A stretch of DNA of 64,000 bases, from the sequence record OP172784. One strand, 5' to 3'. Shown in pieces: positions 1 through 60,341 of the stretch (its first letter is position 1; each line of letters starts with the position of its first letter). This DNA comes from Escherichia phage ECO07P1. A model generated the notes under the pieces. It was not told the DNA's origin. It saw nothing but the letters and a program-made list of their open reading frames with translations, and did not search any database. A program made the translations under genes and the position numbers.

Positions 1-2498
1 GAGATTGGATGAAGCGAATGGAAGACATCGGTCTCGAAGCTCTCGGTATGAACGATTTTAAACTCGCTTATATCAGTGATACATATGGTTCAGAAATTGT
101 TTATGACCGAAAATTTGTTCGTGTAGCTAACTGTGATATTGAGGTTACTGGCGATAAATTTCCTGACCCAATGAAAGCAGAATATGAAATTGATGCTATC
201 ACTCATTATGATTCAATTGACGACCGTTTTTACGTCTTTGATTTGTTGAATTCAATGTACGGTTCAGTATCAAAATGGGATGCAAAGTTAGCTGCTAAGC
301 TTGACTGTGAAGGTGGTGATGAAGTTCCTCAAGAAATTCTTGACCGAGTAATTTATATGCCATTTGATAATGAGCGCGATATGCTCATGGAATATATTAA
401 TCTCTGGGAACAGAAACGACCTGCTATTTTTACTGGTTGGAATATTGAGGGATTTGACGTTCCGTATATCATGAATCGTGTTAAAATGGTTCTCGGTGAA
501 CGTAGTATGAAACGTTTCTCTCCAATCGGTCGAGTAAAATCTAAACTAATTCAAAATATGTACGGTAGCAAAGAAATTTATTCTATTGATGGCGTATCTA
601 TTCTTGATTATTTAGATTTGTACAAGAAGTTCGCATTTACTAATTTGCCATCATTCTCTTTGGAATCAGTTGCTCAGCACGAAACCAAAAAAGGTAAATT
701 GCCGTACGATGGTCCTATTAATAAACTTCGTGAGACTAATCATCAACGATACATTAGTTATAACATCATTGACGTAGAATCAGTTCAAGCAATTGATAAA
801 ATTCGTGGGTTTATCGATCTAGTTTTAAGTATGTCTTATTACGCTAAAATGCCTTTTTCTGGTGTAATGAGTCCTATTAAAACTTGGGATGCTATTATTT
901 TTAACTCATTGAAAGGTGAACATAAGGTTATTCCTCAACAAGGTTCGCACGTTAAACAGAGTTTTCCAGGTGCATTTGTATTTGAACCTAAAGCGATTGC
1001 TCGTCGATACATTATGAGTTTTGACTTGACGTCTCTGTATCCGAGTATTATTCGTCAGGTTAACATTAGTCCTGAAACTATTCGTGGTCAGTTTAAAGTT
1101 CATCCAATTCATGAATATATCGCAGGAACAGCTCCTAAACCGAGTGATGAATATTCTTGTTCTCCGAATGGATGGATGTATGATAAGCATCAAGAAGGTA
1201 TCATTCCAAAGGAAATCGCTAAAGTATTTTTCCAGCGTAAAGATTGGAAAAAGAAAATGTTCGCCGAAGAAATGAATGCCGAAGCTATTAAAAAGATTAT
1301 TATGAAAGGTGCAGGGTCTTGTTCAACTAAACCAGAAGTTGAACGATATGTTAAGTTCAATGATGATTTCTTAAATGAATTATCGAATTACACCGAATCT
1401 GTTCTTAATAGTCTGATCGAAGAATGTGAAAAAGCAGCTACACTTGCTAACACAAATCAGCTGAACCGTAAAATTCTTATTAACAGTCTTTATGGTGCTC
1501 TTGGTAATATTCATTTCCGCTACTATGATTTGCGAAATGCTACTGCTATCACAATTTTTGGTCAAGTTGGTATTCAGTGGATTGCTCGTAAAATTAATGA
1601 ATACCTAAATAAAGTATGTGGAACTGATGGTGAAGATTTCATCGCGGCGGGTGATACTGATTCGGTATATGTTTGTGTAGATAAAGTTATTGAAAAAGTA
1701 GGTCTTGACCGCTTTAAAGAACAAAATGATTTAGTTGAATTCATGAATCAGTTCGGTAAGAAAAAGATGGAACCTATGATTGATGTTGCATATCGTGAGT
1801 TATGTGATTATATGAATAACCGCGAGCATCTGATGCATATGGACCGTGAAGCTATTTCTTGTCCTCCGCTTGGTTCAAAGGGTGTTGGTGGATTTTGGAA
1901 AGCGAAAAAACGTTATGCTCTGAATGTTTATGATATGGAAGATAAGCGATTTGCTGAACCACATCTAAAAATCATGGGTATGGAAACTCAACAGAGTTCA
2001 ACACCAAAAGCAGTACAAGAAGCTCTCGAAGAAAGTATTCGTCGTATTCTTCAGGAAGGCGAAGAGTCTGTCCAAGAATACTATAAGAACTTTGAGAAAG
2101 AATATCGTCAACTTGACTATAAAGTTATTGCTGAAGTAAAAACCGCGAACGATATAGCGAAATATGACGATAAAGGTTGGCCAGGATTTAAATGCCCGTT
2201 CCATATTCGTGGTGTGCTAACTTATCGTCGAGCTGTTAGTGGTTTAGGTGTAGCTCCAATTTTGGATGGAAATAAGGTAATGGTTCTTCCATTGCGTGAA
2301 GGAAATCCATTTGGTGACAAGTGCATTGCTTGGCCATCGGGTACGGAACTTCCAAAAGAAATTCGTTCTGATGTACTGTCTTGGATTGACTACTCAACTT
2401 TGTTCCAAAAATCGTTTGTTAAACCGCTTGCGGGCATGTGTGAATCGGCTGGCATGGACTATGAAGAAAAAGCTTCGTTAGACTTCCTGTTTGGCTGA
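1..2498 (+). CDS. 43: DNA polymerase gp43, 5'-truncated at window edge (C-terminal ~830 aa)
   Basis: Open frame from window start to TGA 2496-2498; family-B polymerase motifs (SFDLTSLYPSII, KILINSLYGALG, AAGDTDSVYV); recognisably T4 gp43. Confidence 0.95.
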   Translation, partial: DWMKRMEDIGLEALGMNDFKLAYISDTYGSEIVYDRKFVRVANCDIEVTGDKFPDPMKAEYEIDAITHYDSIDDRFYVFDLLNSMYGSVSKWDAKLAAKLDCEGGDEVPQEILDRVIYMPFDNERDMLMEYINLWEQKRPAIFTGWNIEGFDVPYIMNRVKMVLGERSMKRFSPIGRVKSKLIQNMYGSKEIYSIDGVSILDYLDLYKKFAFTNLPSFSLESVAQHETKKGKLPYDGPINKLRETNHQRYISYNIIDVESVQAIDKIRGFIDLVLSMSYYAKMPFSGVMSPIKTWDAIIFNSLKGEHKVIPQQGSHVKQSFPGAFVFEPKAIARRYIMSFDLTSLYPSIIRQVNISPETIRGQFKVHPIHEYIAGTAPKPSDEYSCSPNGWMYDKHQEGIIPKEIAKVFFQRKDWKKKMFAEEMNAEAIKKIIMKGAGSCSTKPEVERYVKFNDDFLNELSNYTESVLNSLIEECEKAATLANTNQLNRKILINSLYGALGNIHFRYYDLRNATAITIFGQVGIQWIARKINEYLNKVCGTDGEDFIAAGDTDSVYVCVDKVIEKVGLDRFKEQNDLVEFMNQFGKKKMEPMIDVAYRELCDYMNNREHLMHMDREAISCPPLGSKGVGGFWKAKKRYALNVYDMEDKRFAEPHLKIMGMETQQSSTPKAVQEALEESIRRILQEGEESVQEYYKNFEKEYRQLDYKVIAEVKTANDIAKYDDKGWPGFKCPFHIRGVLTYRRAVSGLGVAPILDGNKVMVLPLREGNPFGDKCIAWPSGTELPKEIRSDVLSWIDYSTLFQKSFVKPLAGMCESAGMDYEEKASLDFLFG

Positions 2499-2511
2499 TA
2501 GAATAAATCTA

Positions 2512-2531
2512 GGGACCTCCAGGTCCCTTTT
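2512..2531 (+). terminator. GC hairpin (gggacct/aggtccc) plus T-run after gene 43
   Basis: Inverted repeat followed by TTTTT directly after stop codon. Confidence 0.5.
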
Positions 2532-2615
2532 TCATACAAGTAATATAAATCTATACTTATGAAAAAGAGATGATTCTGGACCCTTTGGATTCCCTAAAAA
2601 TTTTTTCACAAAACT

Positions 2616-2645
2616 GTTTACAAGACCGTTACTCTGTGGTACTAT
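2616..2645 (+). promoter_or_regulatory. T4-type early promoter (GTTTAC, 18-bp spacer, TACTAT)
   Basis: GTTTAC at 2616-2621, -10 TACTAT after TGTGG; A/T-rich upstream tract. Confidence 0.45.
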
Positions 2646-2679
2646 ACAACTATCAACTAATACGGATTTGGAGAATGAA

Positions 2680-3060
2680 ATGAAAATCGCTATTTTGGTT
2701 ATTGCATTAGGTCTTACTGGTTGTGTAGCTCAAGGACCAGTAGTAAATCAGTCTGATGCAGGAAAAATTGTAAACTGTTCAAGCAAATTTTATAATCCTA
2801 ACGTCAAGTGTTATAAAGAGGCTCCAAAACAGACAGTAGAACAAATGCAGGCGAATTTTGACGAAGCTATTCGTCCAGATGAATCTGCTCAAGCATATCG
2901 TAATTCAGATGTAATTACACGCGAAGAAAAAATTGAAAGCTACTGCGCTGAACTTTGGGCTAATTGGGCTAATAATTATCAATGGCGTACTGGTAAAAAT
3001 GCTCCAATGGAGTATGTAGTGAATTCTTATAATTCATGTGTAAAAAATTTGACTAAGTGA
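2680..3060 (+). CDS. Putative lipoprotein (signal peptide with LTGC lipobox), conserved T4-like small ORF
   Basis: ATG at 2680 with GGAG SD (track ORF starts at upstream TTG 2668); N-terminal MKIAILVIALGLTGC. Confidence 0.5.
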   Translation: MKIAILVIALGLTGCVAQGPVVNQSDAGKIVNCSSKFYNPNVKCYKEAPKQTVEQMQANFDEAIRPDESAQAYRNSDVITREEKIESYCAELWANWANNYQWRTGKNAPMEYVVNSYNSCVKNLTK

Positions 3061-3067
3061 GGAAAAC

Positions 3068-3319
3068 ATGGAAACTTTAGTAGCAGGTTCAATTTTTATG
3101 GTTTTAGTTTCAGGCGTGTTGGCTATTATTATATACATGCTTCCATGGTTCATCGCCTTGATGCGTGGGTCAAAATCGACAGTAGGAATCTTTTTCACAT
3201 CTTTACTGTTTAACTGGTCAATTATTGGTTGGTTTATTACATTTATTTGGTCAATTGCAGGTGAAACTAAAAAGTCTGCGCAGCCAAATCAGGTAATTAT
3301 CATCAGAGAGAAGGAATGA
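3068..3319 (+). CDS. imm: Imm, superinfection immunity membrane protein (83 aa)
   Basis: 83-aa two-TM protein matching T4 Imm in length and position between 43 and 42. Confidence 0.8.
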   Translation: METLVAGSIFMVLVSGVLAIIIYMLPWFIALMRGSKSTVGIFFTSLLFNWSIIGWFITFIWSIAGETKKSAQPNQVIIIREKE

Positions 3320-3465
3320 AAAGCAAAATTATAGCAGCATTGCTTTTAATCTTGATGATTATAATAAGTATATACTATAGTGTAACGGTTCCTTGTATGA
3401 TTCCAACTATTATTTTAGGTTGGGGTTTATTACTGTTACAAGTTAAATATGAATGTATCAATTGA
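3316..3465 (+). CDS. Small hydrophobic membrane peptide (49 aa)
   Basis: ATG overlaps imm stop (ATGA); below the ORF-track size cutoff; hydrophobic throughout. Confidence 0.3.
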   Translation: MKSKIIAALLLILMIIISIYYSVTVPCMIPTIILGWGLLLLQVKYECIN

Positions 3466-3472
3466 GGTTTAA

Positions 3473-4213
3473 ATGATTAGTGACTCTATGACAGTTGAAG
3501 AAATCCGTCTTCATTTGGGAACTGCATTAAAGGAAAAAGATTTCGTAGTTGATAAAACTGGTGTTAAAACTATTGAAATTATTGGCGCATCATTTGTAGC
3601 AGATGAACCGTTTATTTTTGGCGCTCTTAATGATGAATACATTCAGCGTGAACTTGAATGGTATAAATCTAAGAGCTTGTTCGTTAAAGATATTCCGGGT
3701 GAAACACCGAAGATTTGGCAACAAGTAGCATCTTCTAAAGGTGAAATTAACTCAAATTATGGTTGGGCTATCTGGTCAGAAGATAACTATGCCCAGTATG
3801 ATATGTGTTTAGCTGAACTTGGTCAAAATCCTGATTCTCGACGTGGTATCATGATTTATACTCGTCCATCTATGCAGTTTGACTACAATAAAGATGGCAT
3901 GTCAGATTTCATGTGTACTAATACAGTACAGTACCTGATTCGTGATAAGAAAGTCAATGCAGTAGTAAGCATGCGCTCAAATGACGTGGTCTTCGGATTC
4001 CGTAATGATTATGCATGGCAAAAATACGTATTAGATAAATTAGTATCTGATTTGAATGCCGGCGATTCAACTCGTCAGTATAAAGCAGGTTCTATTATAT
4101 GGAATGTTGGAAGTCTTCATGTATATTCTCGTCATTTTTACTTGGTTGATCATTGGTGGAATACTGGCGAAACTCATATTGTGAAAAAAGATTATAATGG
4201 TGAGTGGAAATGA
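3473..4213 (+). CDS. 42: dCMP hydroxymethylase gp42 (246 aa)
   Basis: 246 aa, near-identical to remembered T4 gp42 (MISDSMTVEEIRLHLG...). Confidence 0.95.
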   Translation: MISDSMTVEEIRLHLGTALKEKDFVVDKTGVKTIEIIGASFVADEPFIFGALNDEYIQRELEWYKSKSLFVKDIPGETPKIWQQVASSKGEINSNYGWAIWSEDNYAQYDMCLAELGQNPDSRRGIMIYTRPSMQFDYNKDGMSDFMCTNTVQYLIRDKKVNAVVSMRSNDVVFGFRNDYAWQKYVLDKLVSDLNAGDSTRQYKAGSIIWNVGSLHVYSRHFYLVDHWWNTGETHIVKKDYNGEWK

Positions 4214-50887: not shown

Positions 50888-52255
<1,368 letters not shown>

Positions 52256-53271
52256 TAATTGAGGCCTGAGTATAAGGTGACTTATACTTGTAATCTATCT
52301 AAACGGGGAACCTCTCTAGTAGACAATCCCGTGCTAAATTGTAGGACTACCCTTTAATAAATACTTCTATATTTAAAGAGGTATTTATGAAAAGTGGAAT
52401 TTATCAGATTAAAAATACTTTAAACAATAAAGTATATGTAGGAAGTGCTAAAGATTTTGAAAAGAGATGGAAGAGGCATTTTAAAGACTTAGAAAAAGGA
52501 TGTCATTCTTCTATAAAACTTCAGAGGTCTTTTAACAAACATGGTAATGTGTTTGAATGTTCTATTTTGGAAGAAATTCCATATGAGAAAGATTTGATTA
52601 TTGAACGAGAAAATTTTTGGATTAAAGAGCTTAATTCTAAAATTAATGGATACAATATTGCTGATGCAACGTTTGGTGATACATGTTCTACGCATCCATT
52701 AAAAGAAGAAATTATTAAGAAACGTTCTGAAACTGTTAAAGCTAAGATGCTTAAACTTGGACCTGATGGTCGGAAAGCTCTTTACAGTAAACCCGGAAGT
52801 AAAAACGGGCGTTGGAATCCAGAAACCCATAAGTTTTGTAAGTGCGGTGTTCGCATACAAACTTCTGCTTATACTTGTAGTAAATGCAGAAATCGTTCAG
52901 GTGAAAATAATTCATTCTTTAATCATAAGCATTCGGACAAAACTAAATCTAAAATATCAGAAAAGATGAAAGGCAAAAAGCCTAGTAATATTAAAAAGAT
53001 TTCATGTGATGGGGCTATTTTTGAATGTGCAGTAGATGCAGCTAGACATTTTAAAATTTCGTCTGGATTAGTTACTTATCGTGTAAAATCTGATAAATGG
53101 AATTGGTTCTACATAAATGCCTAACGACTATCCCTTTGGGGAGTAGGGTCAAGTGACTCGAAACGATAGACAACTTGCTTTAACAAGTTGGAGATATAGT
53201 CTGCTCTGCATGGTGACATGCAGCTGGATATAATTCCGGGGTAAGATTAACGACCTTATCTGAACATAATG
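52256..53271 (+). mobile_element. td group I self-splicing intron (1016 nt) containing I-TevI
   Basis: Interrupts td between ...FLG and LPFNIASYA...; exon 1 ends in U, intron ends in G; 1016 nt as I recall for the T4 td intron. Confidence 0.85.
52387..53124 (+). CDS. I-TevI: I-TevI GIY-YIG homing endonuclease (intron-encoded)
   Basis: 245 aa; GIY-YIG N-terminus (SGIYQIKNTLNNKVYVGS), zinc finger and C-terminal DNA-binding domain. Confidence 0.9.
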   Translation: MKSGIYQIKNTLNNKVYVGSAKDFEKRWKRHFKDLEKGCHSSIKLQRSFNKHGNVFECSILEEIPYEKDLIIERENFWIKELNSKINGYNIADATFGDTCSTHPLKEEIIKKRSETVKAKMLKLGPDGRKALYSKPGSKNGRWNPETHKFCKCGVRIQTSAYTCSKCRNRSGENNSFFNHKHSDKTKSKISEKMKGKKPSNIKKISCDGAIFECAVDAARHFKISSGLVTYRVKSDKWNWFYINA

Positions 53272-53583
53272 CTTCCATTTAATATTGCATCATATGCTGC
53301 GTTAGTTCATATTGTAGCTAAGATGTGTAATCTTATTCCTGGAGATTTGATATTTTCTGGCGGTAATACTCATATCTATATGAATCACGTAGAACAATGT
53401 AAAGAAATTTTGCGTCGTGAACCTAAAGAGCTTTGTGAACTGGTAATAGGCGGATTGCCTTATAAATTCCGTTATCTTTCTACTAAAGAACAATTGGAAT
53501 ACATTCTTAAACTCAGGCCTAAAGATTTCGTTCTCAAAGATTATCAGTCCCACGGTGTCTTGAAAGGAAAAATGGCGGTGTAA
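53272..53583 (+). CDS. td: Thymidylate synthase, exon 2
   Basis: LPFNIASYAALVHIV... continues the TS frame; joined CDS gives 286 aa. Confidence 0.9.
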   Translation, partial: LPFNIASYAALVHIVAKMCNLIPGDLIFSGGNTHIYMNHVEQCKEILRREPKELCELVIGGLPYKFRYLSTKEQLEYILKLRPKDFVLKDYQSHGVLKGKMAV

Positions 53584-53870: not shown

Positions 53871-54150
53871 ATATAAATCCGACTTTGATGTTAATATTCA
53901 CCGTGGTACATTTTGGGGAAATTACGTCGGTAAAGATGCTGGCAGCCGGGAGGCTGCCATTGAATTATTCAAAAAAGATTTTATACGTCGAATTAAATCC
54001 GGAGAAATAACTAAAGCACATTTAGAGCCTTTACGTGGAATGAGGCTAGGATGCACATGTAAACCAAAGCCGTGTCATGGTGATATAATAGCTCATATAG
54101 TTAACCGATTGTTTAAAGACGATTTTCAAGTTGAGGACTTATGCAATTAA
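53824..54150 (+). CDS. Hypothetical protein (T4 nrdA.2 position)
   Basis: 108-aa ORF overlapping neighbours at both ends. Confidence 0.45.
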
Positions 54151-56405
54151 TTAATGTTATCAAAAGTAGTGGTGTTTCTCAGAGCTTTGACCCGCAAAAA
54201 ATTATTAAAGTTTTATCTTGGGCAGCTGAAGGAACATCTGTAGATCCTTATGAATTATATGAAAATATTAAATCATATCTCCGTGATGGAATGACCACTG
54301 ATGACATTCAAACCATTGTAATTAAGGCTGCTGCGAATTCTATTTCAGTTGAAGAGCCTGATTATCAATACGTAGCCGCTCGTTGTTTAATGTTTGCTCT
54401 TCGTAAGCATGTTTACGGGCAGTATGAGCCCCGTTCATTTATTGACCATATTTCTTACTGTGTAAATGAAGGTAAATACGACCCTGAATTGTTGTCAAAA
54501 TATTCTGCAGAAGAAATTACATTTTTAGAATCAAAAATTAAGCACGAGCGGGATATGGAATTTACTTATTCCGGGGCGATGCAATTAAAAGAAAAATATC
54601 TAGTTAAAGATAAAACCACTGGTCAAATTTATGAAACTCCACAGTTTGCATTTATGACTATTGGAATGGCATTGCATCAAGATGAACCTGTTGATAGATT
54701 AAAACACGTTATCCGTTTTTATGAAGCAGTATCTACTCGACAGATTTCATTGCCAACTCCTATTATGGCTGGATGTCGTACTCCAACTCGGCAGTTTAGT
54801 TCATGTGTTGTTATTGAGGCAGGTGATTCGCTGAAGTCTATCAATAAAGCTTCTGCTTCAATTGTTGAGTATATTTCTAAACGAGCCGGAATCGGTATTA
54901 ACGTTGGTATGATTCGTGCCGAAGGTTCTAAGATTGGCACAGGTGAAGTACGCCATACTGGTGTTATTCCTTTTTGGAAACATTTTCAGACTGCTGTTAA
55001 ATCATGTTCACAGGGCGGAATTCGTGGCGGCGCTGCTACTGCTTATTATCCTATTTGGCATTTGGAAGTTGAAAATCTTCTCGTTTTGAAAAATAACAAA
55101 GGTGTAGAAGAAAACCGTATCCGTCATATGGATTATGGCGTCCAGCTGAATGATTTGATGATGGAACGTTTTGGAAAGAACGACTACATTACTTTGTTCA
55201 GTCCGCATGAAATGGGTGGCGAGCTTTATTATTCTTATTTTAAAGACCAAGACCGTTTCCGCGAATTATACGAAGCAGCAGAAAAAGACCCTAATATTCG
55301 CAAAAAGCGTATTAAAGCACGTGAACTGTTTGAATTGCTCATGACTGAACGATCAGGAACAGCAAGGATTTATGTGCAGTTCATTGATAATACGAATAAC
55401 TATACTCCATTTATTCGTGAAAAGGCACCTATTCGTCAGAGTAACTTGTGTTGTGAAATTGCTATTCCAACAAATGATGTGAATAGTCCTGATGCTGAAA
55501 TTGGATTGTGCACGTTATCTGCATTTGTGTTGGATAACTTCGATTGGCAAGACCAAGATAAAATTAATGAATTAGCAGAAGTTCAAGTTCGTGCTCTTGA
55601 TAATCTTTTGGATTACCAAGGATATCCAGTTCCTGAAGCAGAAAAAGCTAAAAAGCGTCGAAATCTTGGTGTAGGTGTTACTAACTATGCAGCTTGGCTG
55701 GCAAGTAACTTTGCTTCTTATGAAGATGCTAACGATTTAACACATGAACTATTTGAGAGATTACAGTATGGGCTCATTAAAGCATCCATTAAGCTCGCCA
55801 AAGAAAAAGGACCTTGCGAATATTATTCAGACACTCGTTGGTCTCGAGGCGAATTACCTATCGACTGGTACAATAAAAAGATTGACCAAATCGCAGCTCC
55901 AAAATACGTTTGTGACTGGTCGTCGCTGCGGGAAGACCTTAAGCTCTTTGGCATCCGTAATAGCACATTATCAGCACTTATGCCATGTGAGTCATCTTCC
56001 CAAGTTTCTAACAGTACAAACGGTATCGAGCCTCCACGTGGACCAGTCTCTGTTAAAGAATCAAAAGAGGGTTCCTTTAATCAAGTCGTGCCCAATATTG
56101 AACATAACATAGACCTGTATGATTATACGTGGAAATTAGCTAAGAAAGGTAATAAACCTTATCTTACACAGGTAGCTATTATGCTGAAATGGGTATGTCA
56201 ATCAGCTTCAGCGAATACATATTATGACCCGCAGATTTTTCCAAAAGGAAAGGTTCCAATGTCAATAATGATTGATGACCTTTTGTATTTTTGGTATTTT
56301 GGCGGAAAAAATTTCTATTATCATAATACCCGCGATGGTTCTGGTACTGATGATTATGAAATAGAAACTCCAAAAGCTGAAGATTGTTCATCCTGTAAAT
56401 TATGA
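54141..56405 (+). CDS. nrdA: Ribonucleotide reductase large subunit (aerobic class I)
   Basis: 754 aa; C-terminal CxxC...CSSCKL; matches T4 NrdA. Confidence 0.95.
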   Translation: MQLINVIKSSGVSQSFDPQKIIKVLSWAAEGTSVDPYELYENIKSYLRDGMTTDDIQTIVIKAAANSISVEEPDYQYVAARCLMFALRKHVYGQYEPRSFIDHISYCVNEGKYDPELLSKYSAEEITFLESKIKHERDMEFTYSGAMQLKEKYLVKDKTTGQIYETPQFAFMTIGMALHQDEPVDRLKHVIRFYEAVSTRQISLPTPIMAGCRTPTRQFSSCVVIEAGDSLKSINKASASIVEYISKRAGIGINVGMIRAEGSKIGTGEVRHTGVIPFWKHFQTAVKSCSQGGIRGGAATAYYPIWHLEVENLLVLKNNKGVEENRIRHMDYGVQLNDLMMERFGKNDYITLFSPHEMGGELYYSYFKDQDRFRELYEAAEKDPNIRKKRIKARELFELLMTERSGTARIYVQFIDNTNNYTPFIREKAPIRQSNLCCEIAIPTNDVNSPDAEIGLCTLSAFVLDNFDWQDQDKINELAEVQVRALDNLLDYQGYPVPEAEKAKKRRNLGVGVTNYAAWLASNFASYEDANDLTHELFERLQYGLIKASIKLAKEKGPCEYYSDTRWSRGELPIDWYNKKIDQIAAPKYVCDWSSLREDLKLFGIRNSTLSALMPCESSSQVSNSTNGIEPPRGPVSVKESKEGSFNQVVPNIEHNIDLYDYTWKLAKKGNKPYLTQVAIMLKWVCQSASANTYYDPQIFPKGKVPMSIMIDDLLYFWYFGGKNFYYHNTRDGSGTDDYEIETPKAEDCSSCKL

Positions 56406-56456
56406 TATAATTTGACTCACGGACGAGTCACTATCTATTAACTAAGCGGAAAATTT

Positions 56457-57132
56457 ATGAGCACAGTTTTTAATACAAATCCAGTTGATGTTTTAAAAGA
56501 ACCTATGTTCTTCGGTTCAGGTCTTGGTATTGCGCGTTATGATATTCAACGCCATAAAGTTTTTGAAGATTTAACCGAAAAGCAATTATCATTTTTCTGG
56601 CGTCCTGAAGAAGTAAACTTAATGATGGATGCTGCACAATTTAACAAGCTTCCTCAATATCAGCAAGATATTTTTACTAATAACCTGAAGTATCAATCAC
56701 TTCTAGATAGCATTCAGGGTCGTGCACCGTCTGCTGTACTTATGTCGTTAATTTCAGACCCAAGTCTTGATACATGGGTTGCTACATGGACTTTTAGTGA
56801 AACTATTCACAGTCGTTCATATACTCATATCATGCGAAATCTTTATACTGATCCATCGAAGGTATTTGATGAGATTGTACTAGATGAAGCTATCATGAAA
56901 CGTGCTGAATCTATCGGTCGCTATTATGATGATGTTCTGACTAAAACCCGTGAATGGGAAAATGCTAAAGAATTTACAGAACTAGCTAAAGAATCTCCTG
57001 ATGCTGTTTTTCGTTTAAATCGAGCTATTAAACAAGAAGCCGAAGCTAAACGAGCACTAATGAAATCTCTTTACCTCTGTTTGCACGTTATTAATGCCTT
57101 AGAAGCTATTCGTTTTTATGTATCTTTTGCGT
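56457..57132 (+). CDS. nrdB: Ribonucleotide reductase small subunit, exon 1
   Basis: R2 frame runs to ...RFYVSFA(C) then is interrupted; 3' boundary inferred from reading-frame continuity. Confidence 0.8.
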
Positions 57133-58223
57133 AAAATGCGCCTTTAAACGGTAACGTTTATCGAAAACTCCTTTAATTGCTGGAAAGTCCTTTATAGGAA
57201 AACTAGCAGCCAAGGTTTTGCTTGCACCTTTAATTAGTATAATATAAATATGATTATACTTTTAAGAGGATGCACAATTGAACTATAGAAAAATTTGGAT
57301 AGATGCGAACGGACCTATACCTAAAGATTCTGATGGAAGAACATACGAAATCCATCATAAAGACGGTAACCGTGAAAATAATGATTTAGATAATTTGATG
57401 TGCCTTTCTATACAGGAACATTATGATATACATTTAGCTCAAAAAGATTACCAGGCTTGTCATGCTATAAAGCTTAGAATGAAATATTCTCCTGAAGAAA
57501 TTTCTGAATTAGCTTCTAAAGCCGCAAAATCTAGAGAAATCCAGATTTTTAATATTCCTGAAGTACGAGCTAAAAATATTGCCTCTATTAAATCTAAGAT
57601 AGAAAATGGTACATTTCATCTTTTAGACGGTGAAATACAGCGTAAATCTAATTTAAATAGAGTTGCATTAGGTATACATAATTTTCAACAAGCTGAGCAT
57701 ATTGCAAAAGTTAAAGAACGCAATATTGCAGCTATAAAAGAAGGTACTCATGTATTTTGCGGTGGTAAAATGCAGTCAGAAACTCAATCAAAACGGGTAA
57801 ATGACGGTTCACATCATTTCTTGTCAGAAGACCATAAGAAAAGAACATCAGCAAAAACATTAGAAATGGTTAAGAACGGGACCCATCCTGCACAAAAAGA
57901 AATCACATGTGATTTCTGCGGTCACATTGGTAAAGGTCCTGGATTTTATCTAAAACATAATGACAGATGTAAATTAAATCCAAATAGAATTCAATTGAAT
58001 TGTCCATATTGTGATAAGAAAGATTTATCACCATCAACATATAAACGATGGCACGGCGACAATTGCAAAGCAAGGTTCAACGACTAGTCTTCGGACGTAG
58101 GGTCAAGCGACTCGAAATGGGGAGAATCCCTCTGGGATTGTGATATAGTCTGGTCTGCATAGTAATATGTAGCAGTTCATAAGAGAACGGGTTGAGAATT
58201 AGCGAGCTCAATCGAACATAACG
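57133..58223 (+). mobile_element. nrdB group I intron (~1.09 kb) containing a full-length HNH endonuclease ORF
   Basis: Interrupts the R2 frame between VSFAC and TFNFHKNMEIMEGNAK; boundaries inferred (exon 1 ends in U, intron ends in G). Confidence 0.7.
57278..58087 (+). CDS. I-TevIII: I-TevIII-like HNH homing endonuclease (269 aa), apparent TTG start
   Basis: HNH motif (YEIHHKDGNRENNDLDNLMCLSIQEHYDIH), C-terminal Cys-rich zinc finger; AAGAGGA SD 7 nt before TTG; no in-frame ATG upstream. Confidence 0.75.
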   Translation: MNYRKIWIDANGPIPKDSDGRTYEIHHKDGNRENNDLDNLMCLSIQEHYDIHLAQKDYQACHAIKLRMKYSPEEISELASKAAKSREIQIFNIPEVRAKNIASIKSKIENGTFHLLDGEIQRKSNLNRVALGIHNFQQAEHIAKVKERNIAAIKEGTHVFCGGKMQSETQSKRVNDGSHHFLSEDHKKRTSAKTLEMVKNGTHPAQKEITCDFCGHIGKGPGFYLKHNDRCKLNPNRIQLNCPYCDKKDLSPSTYKRWHGDNCKARFND

Positions 58224-58726
58224 GTACCTTTAACTTCCATAAGAACATGGAAATCATGGAAGGTAATGCCAAGATTATGAAGTTCATTGCACGTGATGAG
58301 CAGCTTCACCTTAAAGGCACTCAATATATTATTCGTCAACTTCAATCCGGTACTGATGGTGATGAATGGGTTAAAATTGCTCAAGAGTGTGAACAAGAAG
58401 CAGTTGATATTTTCATGGAAGTTAACCGCCAAGAAAAAGATTGGGCAGTTCATTTATTTAAAGATGGCGATGTTCCTGGATTAAATACAAATAGCATGTG
58501 GAGCTTTATTGATTACTTAACTGTATCTCGTATGAAACAGTGCGGTCTTCCATGCCCAATTACCGATGCTCCGGTTAAACATCCATATCCTTGGATTCGT
58601 GAATATCTTAATTCTGATAATGTTCAATCCGCGCCACAAGAAGTAGAACTGTCATCTTACCTTGTTGCACAGATTGATAATGATGTTGATGATAAAGTTA
58701 TGATGAGTTTTAAAAAATACTTTTAA
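58224..58726 (+). CDS. nrdB: Ribonucleotide reductase small subunit, exon 2
   Basis: Frame continues TFNFHKNMEIMEGNAKIMKF... to stop at 58724-58726. Confidence 0.8.
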
Positions 58727-58730
58727 GGAG

Positions 58731-58750
58731 TGGGCCGCAAGGCCCATTTT
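58731..58750 (+). terminator. Rho-independent terminator after nrdB
   Basis: tgggcc-gcaa-ggccca followed by TTTT. Confidence 0.55.
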
Positions 58751-58753
58751 ATT

Positions 58754-60341
<1,588 letters not shown>

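Follow-up and report, generated by a model that had tools for sequence, protein, structure and literature searches.

Organization of the nrdB locus

The window analysed is a stretch of 64,000 nt of DNA from Escherichia phage ECO07P1 (record OP172784), to which all coordinates refer. Its plus strand carries a gene run formed by nrdA (54141–56405), nrdB, denA (58730–59164, GIY-YIG) and rnlA (59181–60341), in which nrdB appears as two raw ORFs (56457–57134 and 58247–58726). These correspond to two exons separated by an intron:

56457–57132, plus strand: nrdB exon 1, residues 1–225 and the first base of codon 226 (Pfam Ribonuc_red_sm, E=8e-20; spliced translation)
57133–58223, plus strand: group I intron of the RB3 type, 1091 nt (identity to ECO07P3 and RB3; Rfam Intron_gpI)
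58224–58726, plus strand: nrdB exon 2 (Pfam Ribonuc_red_sm, E=3.9e-11; spliced translation)

From the reading of the sequence, the last base of exon 1 is U57132 and the terminal base of the intron is G58223. Joining 56457–57132 to 58224–58726 generates a frame of 1179 nt coding for a 392-aa NrdB, which reads FYVSFAC followed by TFNFHKNMEIMEGNAK across the junction. A synthetic 300-nt exon junction was compared with the intronless nrdB of N2, EP01, KIT06 and other phages, with 99.0–99.7% identity; because these intronless alleles match the junction in a single piece, both intron boundaries are fixed to the base. An earlier note, made from the sequence alone, had placed a group I intron of nrdB at 57133–58223; these coordinates are exact, and removal of the 1091 nt restores NrdB. 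Precise removal, as required of a group I intron (RF00028), is seen in the spliced frame as well as in the colinear intronless alleles. The intron RNA is expected to self-splice, restoring the NrdB frame, because the near-identical introns of T4 and RB3 are treated as splicing (PMC1865063, PMC2988022).

The intron is 100% identical to that of Escherichia phage ECO07P3 and 99.7% identical to that of phage RB3. It matches 128 phage records, and 84 (about 85) hold it at full length. The td gene of the window is also split by an intron (about 52254–53268), with an intact I-TevI that starts at ATG.

The catalytic core of the intron

A search of the whole 64 kb at the Rfam gathering threshold returned no match, and both introns (nrdB and td) were missed. 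The match of the nrdB intron to Intron_gpI (RF00028) was obtained in E-value mode, below the gathering score of 50 (33.9 bits, E=2.4e-6), with the 3′ half alone being convincing. The score falls short because the model is interrupted by an insert of 844 nt within the loop of P6a. Natural derivatives of the intron scored above the gathering value, with 68.7 bits for the 304-nt ORF-less intron of BYEP01 and 57.9 bits for the 420-nt intron of SG1. The BYEP01 intron has lost nearly the entire ORF between ACAATTG repeats (57273–57279 and 58059–58065 in the window), and its aligned core segments are the same as those of the window, with zero differences. The Rfam match and these two derivatives together identify the conserved group I catalytic core (P3–P8, with the P7 R/S pairing). 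Individual helices were placed by the Rfam alignment and by the minimum-energy fold of the BYEP01 derivative, as follows:

57129–57141, plus strand: predicted P1, exon GCGU and intron A1 paired with intron UGCGC, with a U57132-G57138 wobble (fold, sequence)
57146–57208, plus strand: 5′ half of the core (Rfam alignment of the BYEP01 intron, fold)
57146–57159, plus strand: P2, with a GUAA loop (Rfam alignment, fold)
57168–57171 with 58121–58124, plus strand: P3 (Rfam alignment, fold)
57178–57183 with 57203–57208, plus strand: P4; 57188–57199: P5 (Rfam alignment, fold)
57209–57221, plus strand: 5′ strands of P6 and P6a (fold)
57209–57211 (GCC) with 58075–58077 (GGU), plus strand: P6 (fold)
57215–57221 (GUUUUGC) with 58066–58072 (GCAAAGC), plus strand: P6a (fold)
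57222–58065, plus strand: P6a loop, holding the ORF and its control region (fold)
58082–58086 (GACUA) with 58146–58150 (UAGUC), plus strand: P7 (sequence, Rfam alignment)
58088–58223, plus strand: 3′ half of the core, with the P3 3′ strand, P8, the P7 3′ strand, P9 and G58223 (Rfam, high posterior probability)
58155–58172, plus strand: P9 hairpin, with a GUAA loop (Rfam alignment)

The intron has both the U-G wobble in P1 (predicted between U57132 and G57138) and the final G (G58223) of group I introns. In pairwise alignment with T4, P9 shows a compensatory change, with an A-U pair in the window and a G-C pair in T4, and the pairing of P6a is kept, with the T4 variant G58071A turning a U-G into a U-A pair. 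An alternative P6a pairing involving 57216–57225 was discarded; it clashed with the hairpin at the ribosome binding site described below, and the fold gives the pairing listed.

The intron codes for a full-length I-TevIII

The P6a loop contains most of a single long ORF, whose features are:

57278–58087, plus strand: I-TevIII ORF, 269 aa, with a TTG start and a TAG stop (ORF call; match to the RB3 CDS)
57353–57433, plus strand: HNH catalytic motif, residues 26–52, with H26, H27, N39, H48 and H52 (Pfam HNH_3, residue check)
57551–57898, plus strand: central region with 4–5 tandem repeats of 21–24 aa ending in G-x-H-x-F, residues about 92–207 (self-comparison)
57908–58066, plus strand: two zinc fingers, CX2CX12-13HX3C, part of the DNA-binding domain (residue check)
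58066–58087, plus strand: end of the ORF overlapping the core, last eight sense codons and stop (sequence, Rfam alignment, fold)

The ORF has zero frameshifts and zero internal stops. The product shows a clear HNH_3 domain (E=6e-13; 48.7 bits against a cutoff of 24.8) and all the residues of both fingers (C211/C214/H227/C231 and C242/C245/H259/C263). The intact HNH/zinc-finger ORF of 269 aa that the earlier note described within the intron is thus indeed full-length I-TevIII: HNH motif, zinc fingers and a full-length RB3 orthologue are all present. In the RB3 enzyme, the substitutions H26A, H27A, N39A and H48A abolish cleavage, and both DNA binding and cleavage are reduced in the double mutants C211A/C214A and C242A/C245A (PMC1865063); all eight residues tested (H26, H27, N39, H48, C211, C214, C242 and C245) are present in ECO07P1.

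The score of the central repeats in self-comparison was reached by 2 of 2000 shuffled sequences. A Pfam match to FlgM (residues 74–114), at 26.2 bits and just above the cutoff, was judged not to represent a real anti-sigma domain; it falls just before, and partly within, the internal repeats, which probably explain it. A search of PDB sequences with the I-TevIII of the window detected zero relatives, and NCBIfam lacks a family for I-TevIII.

I-TevIII has its HNH nuclease domain at the N-terminus and, at the C-terminus, a region for DNA binding and dimerisation that includes the two zinc fingers. I-HmuI likewise combines an HNH module with an extended DNA-binding region; it is a monomer that nicks a single strand, in contrast to the I-TevIII dimer, which produces a double-strand break (PMC1865063). 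Homing of the RB3 intron requires I-TevIII, which acts as a dimer (Robbins et al. 2007, PMC1865063). During a mixed infection with an intronless phage, the I-TevIII dimer would bind the nrdB exon junction, and repair would then copy the intron into the cut intronless allele. These steps are ascribed to ECO07P1 on the strength of work with the RB3 enzyme, from which its own differs in one residue. Intronless alleles with an identical junction sequence, as potential targets, exist in related phages.

Comparison with the introns of RB3 and T4

The RB3 intron occupies the same insertion site, with the same architecture and length (1091 nt in the genome record, 1090 nt in X59078). The longer RB3 intron was found in a screen of wild phages (Eddy and Gold 1991, as cited in PMC1865063). 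The earlier note stated that an intact form of the ORF was reported from a wild relative, which agrees with the alignment of the RB3 intron at 99.7% and its use of the same TTG. The I-TevIII CDS annotated in X59078 (191..1000) corresponds to the 810 nt at 57278–58087 of the window, with that same TTG, and I-TevIII of KM606994 has the same start and length as the ORF of the window. In the RB3 genome record, nrdB is a two-piece join with I-TevIII nested inside. RB3 also shares with the window the Shine-Dalgarno sequence, the late-promoter motif, the hairpin and the stop codon within P7. Three substitutions separate both introns, two of them synonymous and the third a D23Y change, so that the I-TevIII products are 99.6% identical. 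RB3 carries a free-standing mobE between nrdA and nrdB, whereas the window has a 51-nt spacer there. This gap thus lacks mobE in ECO07P1; a homing endonuclease gene is found in it in T4 and RB3 (mobE in both), HY03 and S16, and a Hef-like endonuclease lies between nrdA and nrdB in N2 and SG1.

The T4 nrdB intron shares with the window the insertion site, the ribozyme core and the control region, including the TTG and the Shine-Dalgarno sequence. It is only 598 nt long, owing to a 491-nt deletion, with which the HNH domain is gone and the frame is shifted, and to two single-base deletions. The segment concerned is:

57342–57832, plus strand: segment deleted in T4 and present here, 491 nt, out of frame, with CATA microhomology at both ends (alignment)

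Because this deletion is out of frame, the ORF annotated in T4 (97 aa) uses an ATG that belongs to another frame. Pairwise alignment with T4 (NC_000866) supports the statement, also in the earlier note, that the T4 ORF is a deleted and defective derivative. The same alignment shows that the ORF of ECO07P1 is not identical to the truncated T4 version; since 57342–57832 is present, it is the undeleted form, free of the HNH-removing deletion that marks the defective I-TevIII of T4.

Distribution and natural variation of I-TevIII

Phages of four genera have the gene at full length: Tequatrovirus, Mosigvirus (G2469, G2285), Dhakavirus (Bp7) and Gelderlandvirus (S16). In all of them the full-length copies use the same TTG. 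The I-TevIII of S16 is the most diverged protein among the copies sampled (89% aa identity), with the block formed by the Shine-Dalgarno sequence, spacer and TTG unchanged. Intron lengths in wild phages form a deletion series of 1091, 598, about 592, 420 and 304 nt.

The sole amino-acid difference with RB3 is at residue 23, three residues before H26, which is Y in ECO07P1 and D in RB3. Y23 was found in 7 of 8 wild copies sampled, and also in the distant I-TevIII-like proteins of X20, STP4-a and TJE1. Y23 is the majority and apparently the ancestral state, the D23 of the laboratory RB3 enzyme being atypical. In vitro, the RB3 enzyme is labile as well as weak, and its low activity has been called unexplained (PMC1865063). 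D23 might be a cause of these properties, judging from its position and distribution; if so, the Y23 allele of ECO07P1 would be the better enzyme.

An intact ORF could still belong to an element that is immobile in this phage, with a dead endonuclease or intron that is decaying as in T4. Decay is frequent in nature, as seen from the many independent deletion derivatives (598, about 592, 420 and 304 nt), and even the RB3 enzyme shows the weakness just mentioned. We nonetheless consider immobility very unlikely for ECO07P1: the ORF is uninterrupted and keeps every residue that mutagenesis has proven important, two of its three differences with RB3 are silent and the third restores the consensus Y23, and several genera of phages share an identical I-TevIII protein, which fits an element that is still spreading.

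Control of I-TevIII expression

The region upstream of the ORF, also in the P6a loop for the most part, contains several putative regulatory elements:

57216–57235, plus strand: operator-like copy of the homing site, putative site for autorepression by I-TevIII (junction match)
57223–57274, plus strand: RNA hairpin, CCUUU (57227–57231) with the Shine-Dalgarno AGAGG (57265–57269) (fold)
57243–57250, plus strand: TATAAATA, the T4 late-promoter consensus, in the hairpin loop (sequence, position)
57264–57270, plus strand: Shine-Dalgarno sequence AAGAGGA, with a 7-nt spacer to the TTG, unchanged in 8 of 8 phages sampled

According to Gott et al. 1988, as cited in PMC2988022, the three intron endonuclease genes of T4 have their own middle or late promoters, and in transcripts starting upstream the ribosome binding site is concealed by a hairpin. 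In the predicted fold of the ECO07P1 hairpin, UGCACCUUU (57223–57231) pairs with AGAGG-A-UGCA (57265–57274), and an inner stem joins 57236–57243 to 57253–57260. The 76-nt stretch containing the hairpin (57225–57300) folds with -9.8 kcal/mol, and the identical helix appears in a context of 121 nt; with z-scores of about -1.7 and -1.9, it is modestly more stable than shuffled sequence.

The late transcript is predicted to start near 57256, 3′ of the masking arm, and would therefore lack this arm. The count of TATAAATA in the window is no higher than expected by chance, so that the promoter assignment draws on its position and on primer-extension mapping in the literature (cited in PMC2988022). 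The operator-like sequence at 57216–57235 has 17 of 20 identities with the intronless junction (-8 to +12), a value reached by 0 of 200 shuffles, and a putative I-TevIII operator in such an arrangement was described in PMC2988022. The earlier note suggested that translation of the intron ORF is regulated, and this is in line with the published model of a late promoter and a hairpin at the ribosome binding site (PMC2988022), both elements being present.

The T4 td intron with I-TevI is organized in the same way: it is likewise a group I intron with a looped-out ORF, a late promoter and a hairpin at the ribosome binding site, and it likewise shows autorepression through a homing-site-like operator and an ORF whose 3′ end reaches the core (PMC2988022). 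The enzymes are different, with I-TevI being a GIY-YIG monomer with an ATG start and I-TevIII an HNH dimer with a TTG start (PMC1865063).

The 3′ end of the I-TevIII ORF overlaps the 3′ strands of P6a and P6, J6/7 and the 5′ strand of P7, with the TAG stop at 58085–58087. Since its last eight codons lie in P6a, P6 and P7, ribosomes reaching the stop would unfold the core, and a restrained expression of I-TevIII makes sense because these ribosomes would disrupt the RNA that has to splice. Mistimed translation of I-TevI is reported to impair splicing (cited in PMC2988022). Translation of I-TevIII would begin at UUG 57278 under the restraint of the intronic late promoter, of the hairpin masking the ribosome binding site on longer, early transcripts and, probably, of the homing-site-like operator. 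The UUG, intrinsically weaker than AUG, may act as a further mild brake.

The TTG start codon

The frame of I-TevIII opens after a TAA at 57263–57265, and TTG 57278 is its first start-type codon. No other start-type codon precedes the catalytic histidines, and the TTG lies at an ideal spacing from AAGAGGA; the next in-frame ATG is codon 41 (57398), beyond the catalytic H26, H27 and N39. The enzyme is required for homing in vivo, so that initiation has to occur upstream of codon 26. The published residue numbering, from H26 through residue 269 (PMC1865063), agrees with a start at this TTG. TTG is the sole usable start and is preceded by a strong AAGAGGA, as the earlier note proposed, and an identical start is annotated for RB3 in X59078.

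Translation could conceivably start elsewhere, either at the ATG of codon 41 or at a near-cognate ATT (codon 6) or ATA (codon 8). No report of the native I-TevIII N-terminus turned up in PMC1865063 or PMC2988022, and in the library searched no paper combines I-TevIII with UUG. Nevertheless, a start at codon 41 would lose H26, H27 and N39, yet the RB3 intron relies on I-TevIII for its homing in vivo (PMC1865063); AAGAGGA is 7 nt from the TTG and at an unsuitable distance from every other candidate; and AUU and AUA initiate at just 1–2% of AUG (bioRxiv 10.1101/063800). A start other than TTG is thus very improbable, and TTG 57278 is retained as the start codon.

Natural variation of the start was evaluated by querying the annotated phage collection with the native, ATG and GTG versions of the initiation region. 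The complete 45-nt region is present in 119 phage records, 107 of which are identical to the window, and among the 119 there was no perfect match with ATG or GTG replacing the TTG. With the variant queries, 118 records fell at one or two mismatches and one record at three, which is the pattern expected if every record has a T at that position, or at least neither A nor G. Pattern scans for natural start-codon variants returned 1 contig in IMG/VR and 0 in the metagenome collection.

The earlier note considered that the TTG suggests a deliberately weak translation, and selection for weak initiation is plausible. It is nearly as probable as not, however, that the identification of the element is right and that the TTG is neutral and simply inherited, with the late promoter, the hairpin and perhaps autorepression as the sole controls of expression. 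The invariance of the TTG says little on selection because 107 of the 119 records are identical over the entire 45 nt, a conservation that is indistinguishable from recent common descent, and in S16, with the most diverged protein sampled, the whole block from the Shine-Dalgarno sequence to the TTG is kept as well. Additionally, UUG belongs to the group of codons that initiate at 10–100% of AUG in E. coli (10.1101/063800), and here it follows a strong Shine-Dalgarno sequence. The 2010 review does not single out the start codon, and even gives AUG as the start of all three intron endonuclease genes (PMC2988022). Against neutrality, a single T-to-A change would give ATG, yet 0 of 119 records have ATG or GTG; the I-TevI of the window starts at ATG, so that a non-ATG start is not the rule; and the overlap of the ORF with the ribozyme core offers grounds for selection against heavy ribosome traffic.

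Implications

We conclude with high confidence that ECO07P1 is a T4-like phage (Tequatrovirus), closely related to ECO07P3, with a full-length nrdB intron of the RB3 type and its I-TevIII, and we found nothing in the sequence that contradicts this identification. Two further readings, that UUG is a selected fourth brake protecting nrdB splicing and that D23 explains the weakness of the RB3 enzyme, are less likely than not.

The element is already known, with its enzyme, mobility and regulatory layout published in 1991, 2007 and 2010, and it is common in sequenced phages. Since the full-length copy is held by about 85 of them, the finding carries little weight as a discovery, and its practical value is in annotation: in the GenBank record of ECO07P3, which is 100% identical, both nrdB halves and I-TevIII are labelled as three hypothetical proteins. 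Two small points of biology can be tested, namely the functional role of the UUG start and the Y23/D23 polymorphism beside the active site of an enzyme studied in the laboratory.

Variation and internal repeats in I-TevIII

Codon 23 of I-TevIII (57344-57346) is TAC in the window, encoding tyrosine, whereas the RB3 allele, the one studied biochemically, has GAC and thus an aspartate. Tyrosine occupies this position in seven of the eight full-length copies sampled, as well as the aligned position in the distant I-TevIII-like HNH proteins of phages X20, STP4-a and TJE1. In the RB3 enzyme the catalytic H26 lies three residues after D23, and the activity of this enzyme is low, for reasons left unexplained (Robbins et al., 2007; PMC1865063). 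D23 might be a cause of this low activity.

Between residues ca. 92 and 207 (57551-57898), I-TevIII contains four or five tandem copies of a 21-24 aa unit with a G-x-H-x-F ending (ENGTFH, LGIHNF, EGTHVF, DGSHHF and NGTHPA), an array that Robbins et al. (2007) leave unmentioned; the similarity observed among the copies was attained in just two of 2000 shuffles. A Pfam match to FlgM (residues 74-114) is situated directly ahead of the repeat region and partly inside it; it scores 26.2 bits, barely over the cutoff, and is probably spurious.

Sequences related to homing

The intron stretch at 57216-57235 agrees in 17 of its 20 bases with the homing site of intronless nrdB, and none of 200 shuffles was as good. 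It is located immediately 5′ of the late-promoter motif of I-TevIII and overlaps the 5′ strand of P6a. It corresponds to the putative operator proposed for I-TevIII autorepression (PMC2988022).

Compared with T4, exon 1 of nrdB shows high divergence and indels at 56957-57056, followed by identity over its final 76 nt upstream of the intron and by near-identity in exon 2. Such a pattern would be expected if the flanking exon sequence were co-converted during homing.

Intergenic regions flanking nrdB

The spacer preceding nrdB lacks an endonuclease gene in the window:

56406-56456, nrdA-nrdB spacer, 51 nt

In contrast, a free-standing HNH endonuclease gene lies between nrdA and nrdB in T4, RB3, HY03 and S16 (mobE in T4 and RB3), and a Hef-like endonuclease in N2 and SG1. 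Free-standing endonuclease genes have a hot spot at this intergenic site, which is empty in the window phage. Rfam returned a weak match to L20_leader (58635-58761; 22.3 bits, E=0.23, far under the gathering score), which is due to GGGCCGCAAGGCCCATTTT (58732-58750), a GC-rich hairpin with a T-run between nrdB and denA. This element looks like an intrinsic terminator, and a terminator is annotated at the equivalent place in phage G2469.

The td intron and annotation of the split genes

The thymidylate synthase gene td (51707-53583) is likewise interrupted by its own group I intron:

51707-52258 and 53269-53583, td exon pieces, as raw ORFs
52387-53124, intact I-TevI ORF, 245 aa, ATG start (TIGR01453, 189 bits)

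Neither the td intron nor the nrdB intron was detected by Rfam at the gathering threshold. The GenBank record of phage ECO07P3 (OP172786), identical to the window, presents the two nrdB exons and I-TevIII (1825-4094 of the ECO07P3 locus) as three separate hypothetical proteins, with no intron annotated; nrdB is split likewise in several further records.

Length variants of the nrdB intron

The nrdB intron measures 1091, 598 (T4), ca. 592 (F26, FL18), 420 (SG1) or 304 nt (BYEP01) among sequenced phages. The shortest form is:

951-1254 of the BYEP01 locus, nrdB intron, 304 nt

The segment lost from BYEP01 is almost exactly the ORF, and the deletion is a junction of two ACAATTG repeats (57273-57279 and 58059-58065 in the window); the edges of the T4 deletion show CATA microhomology. 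The length variants form a natural deletion series.
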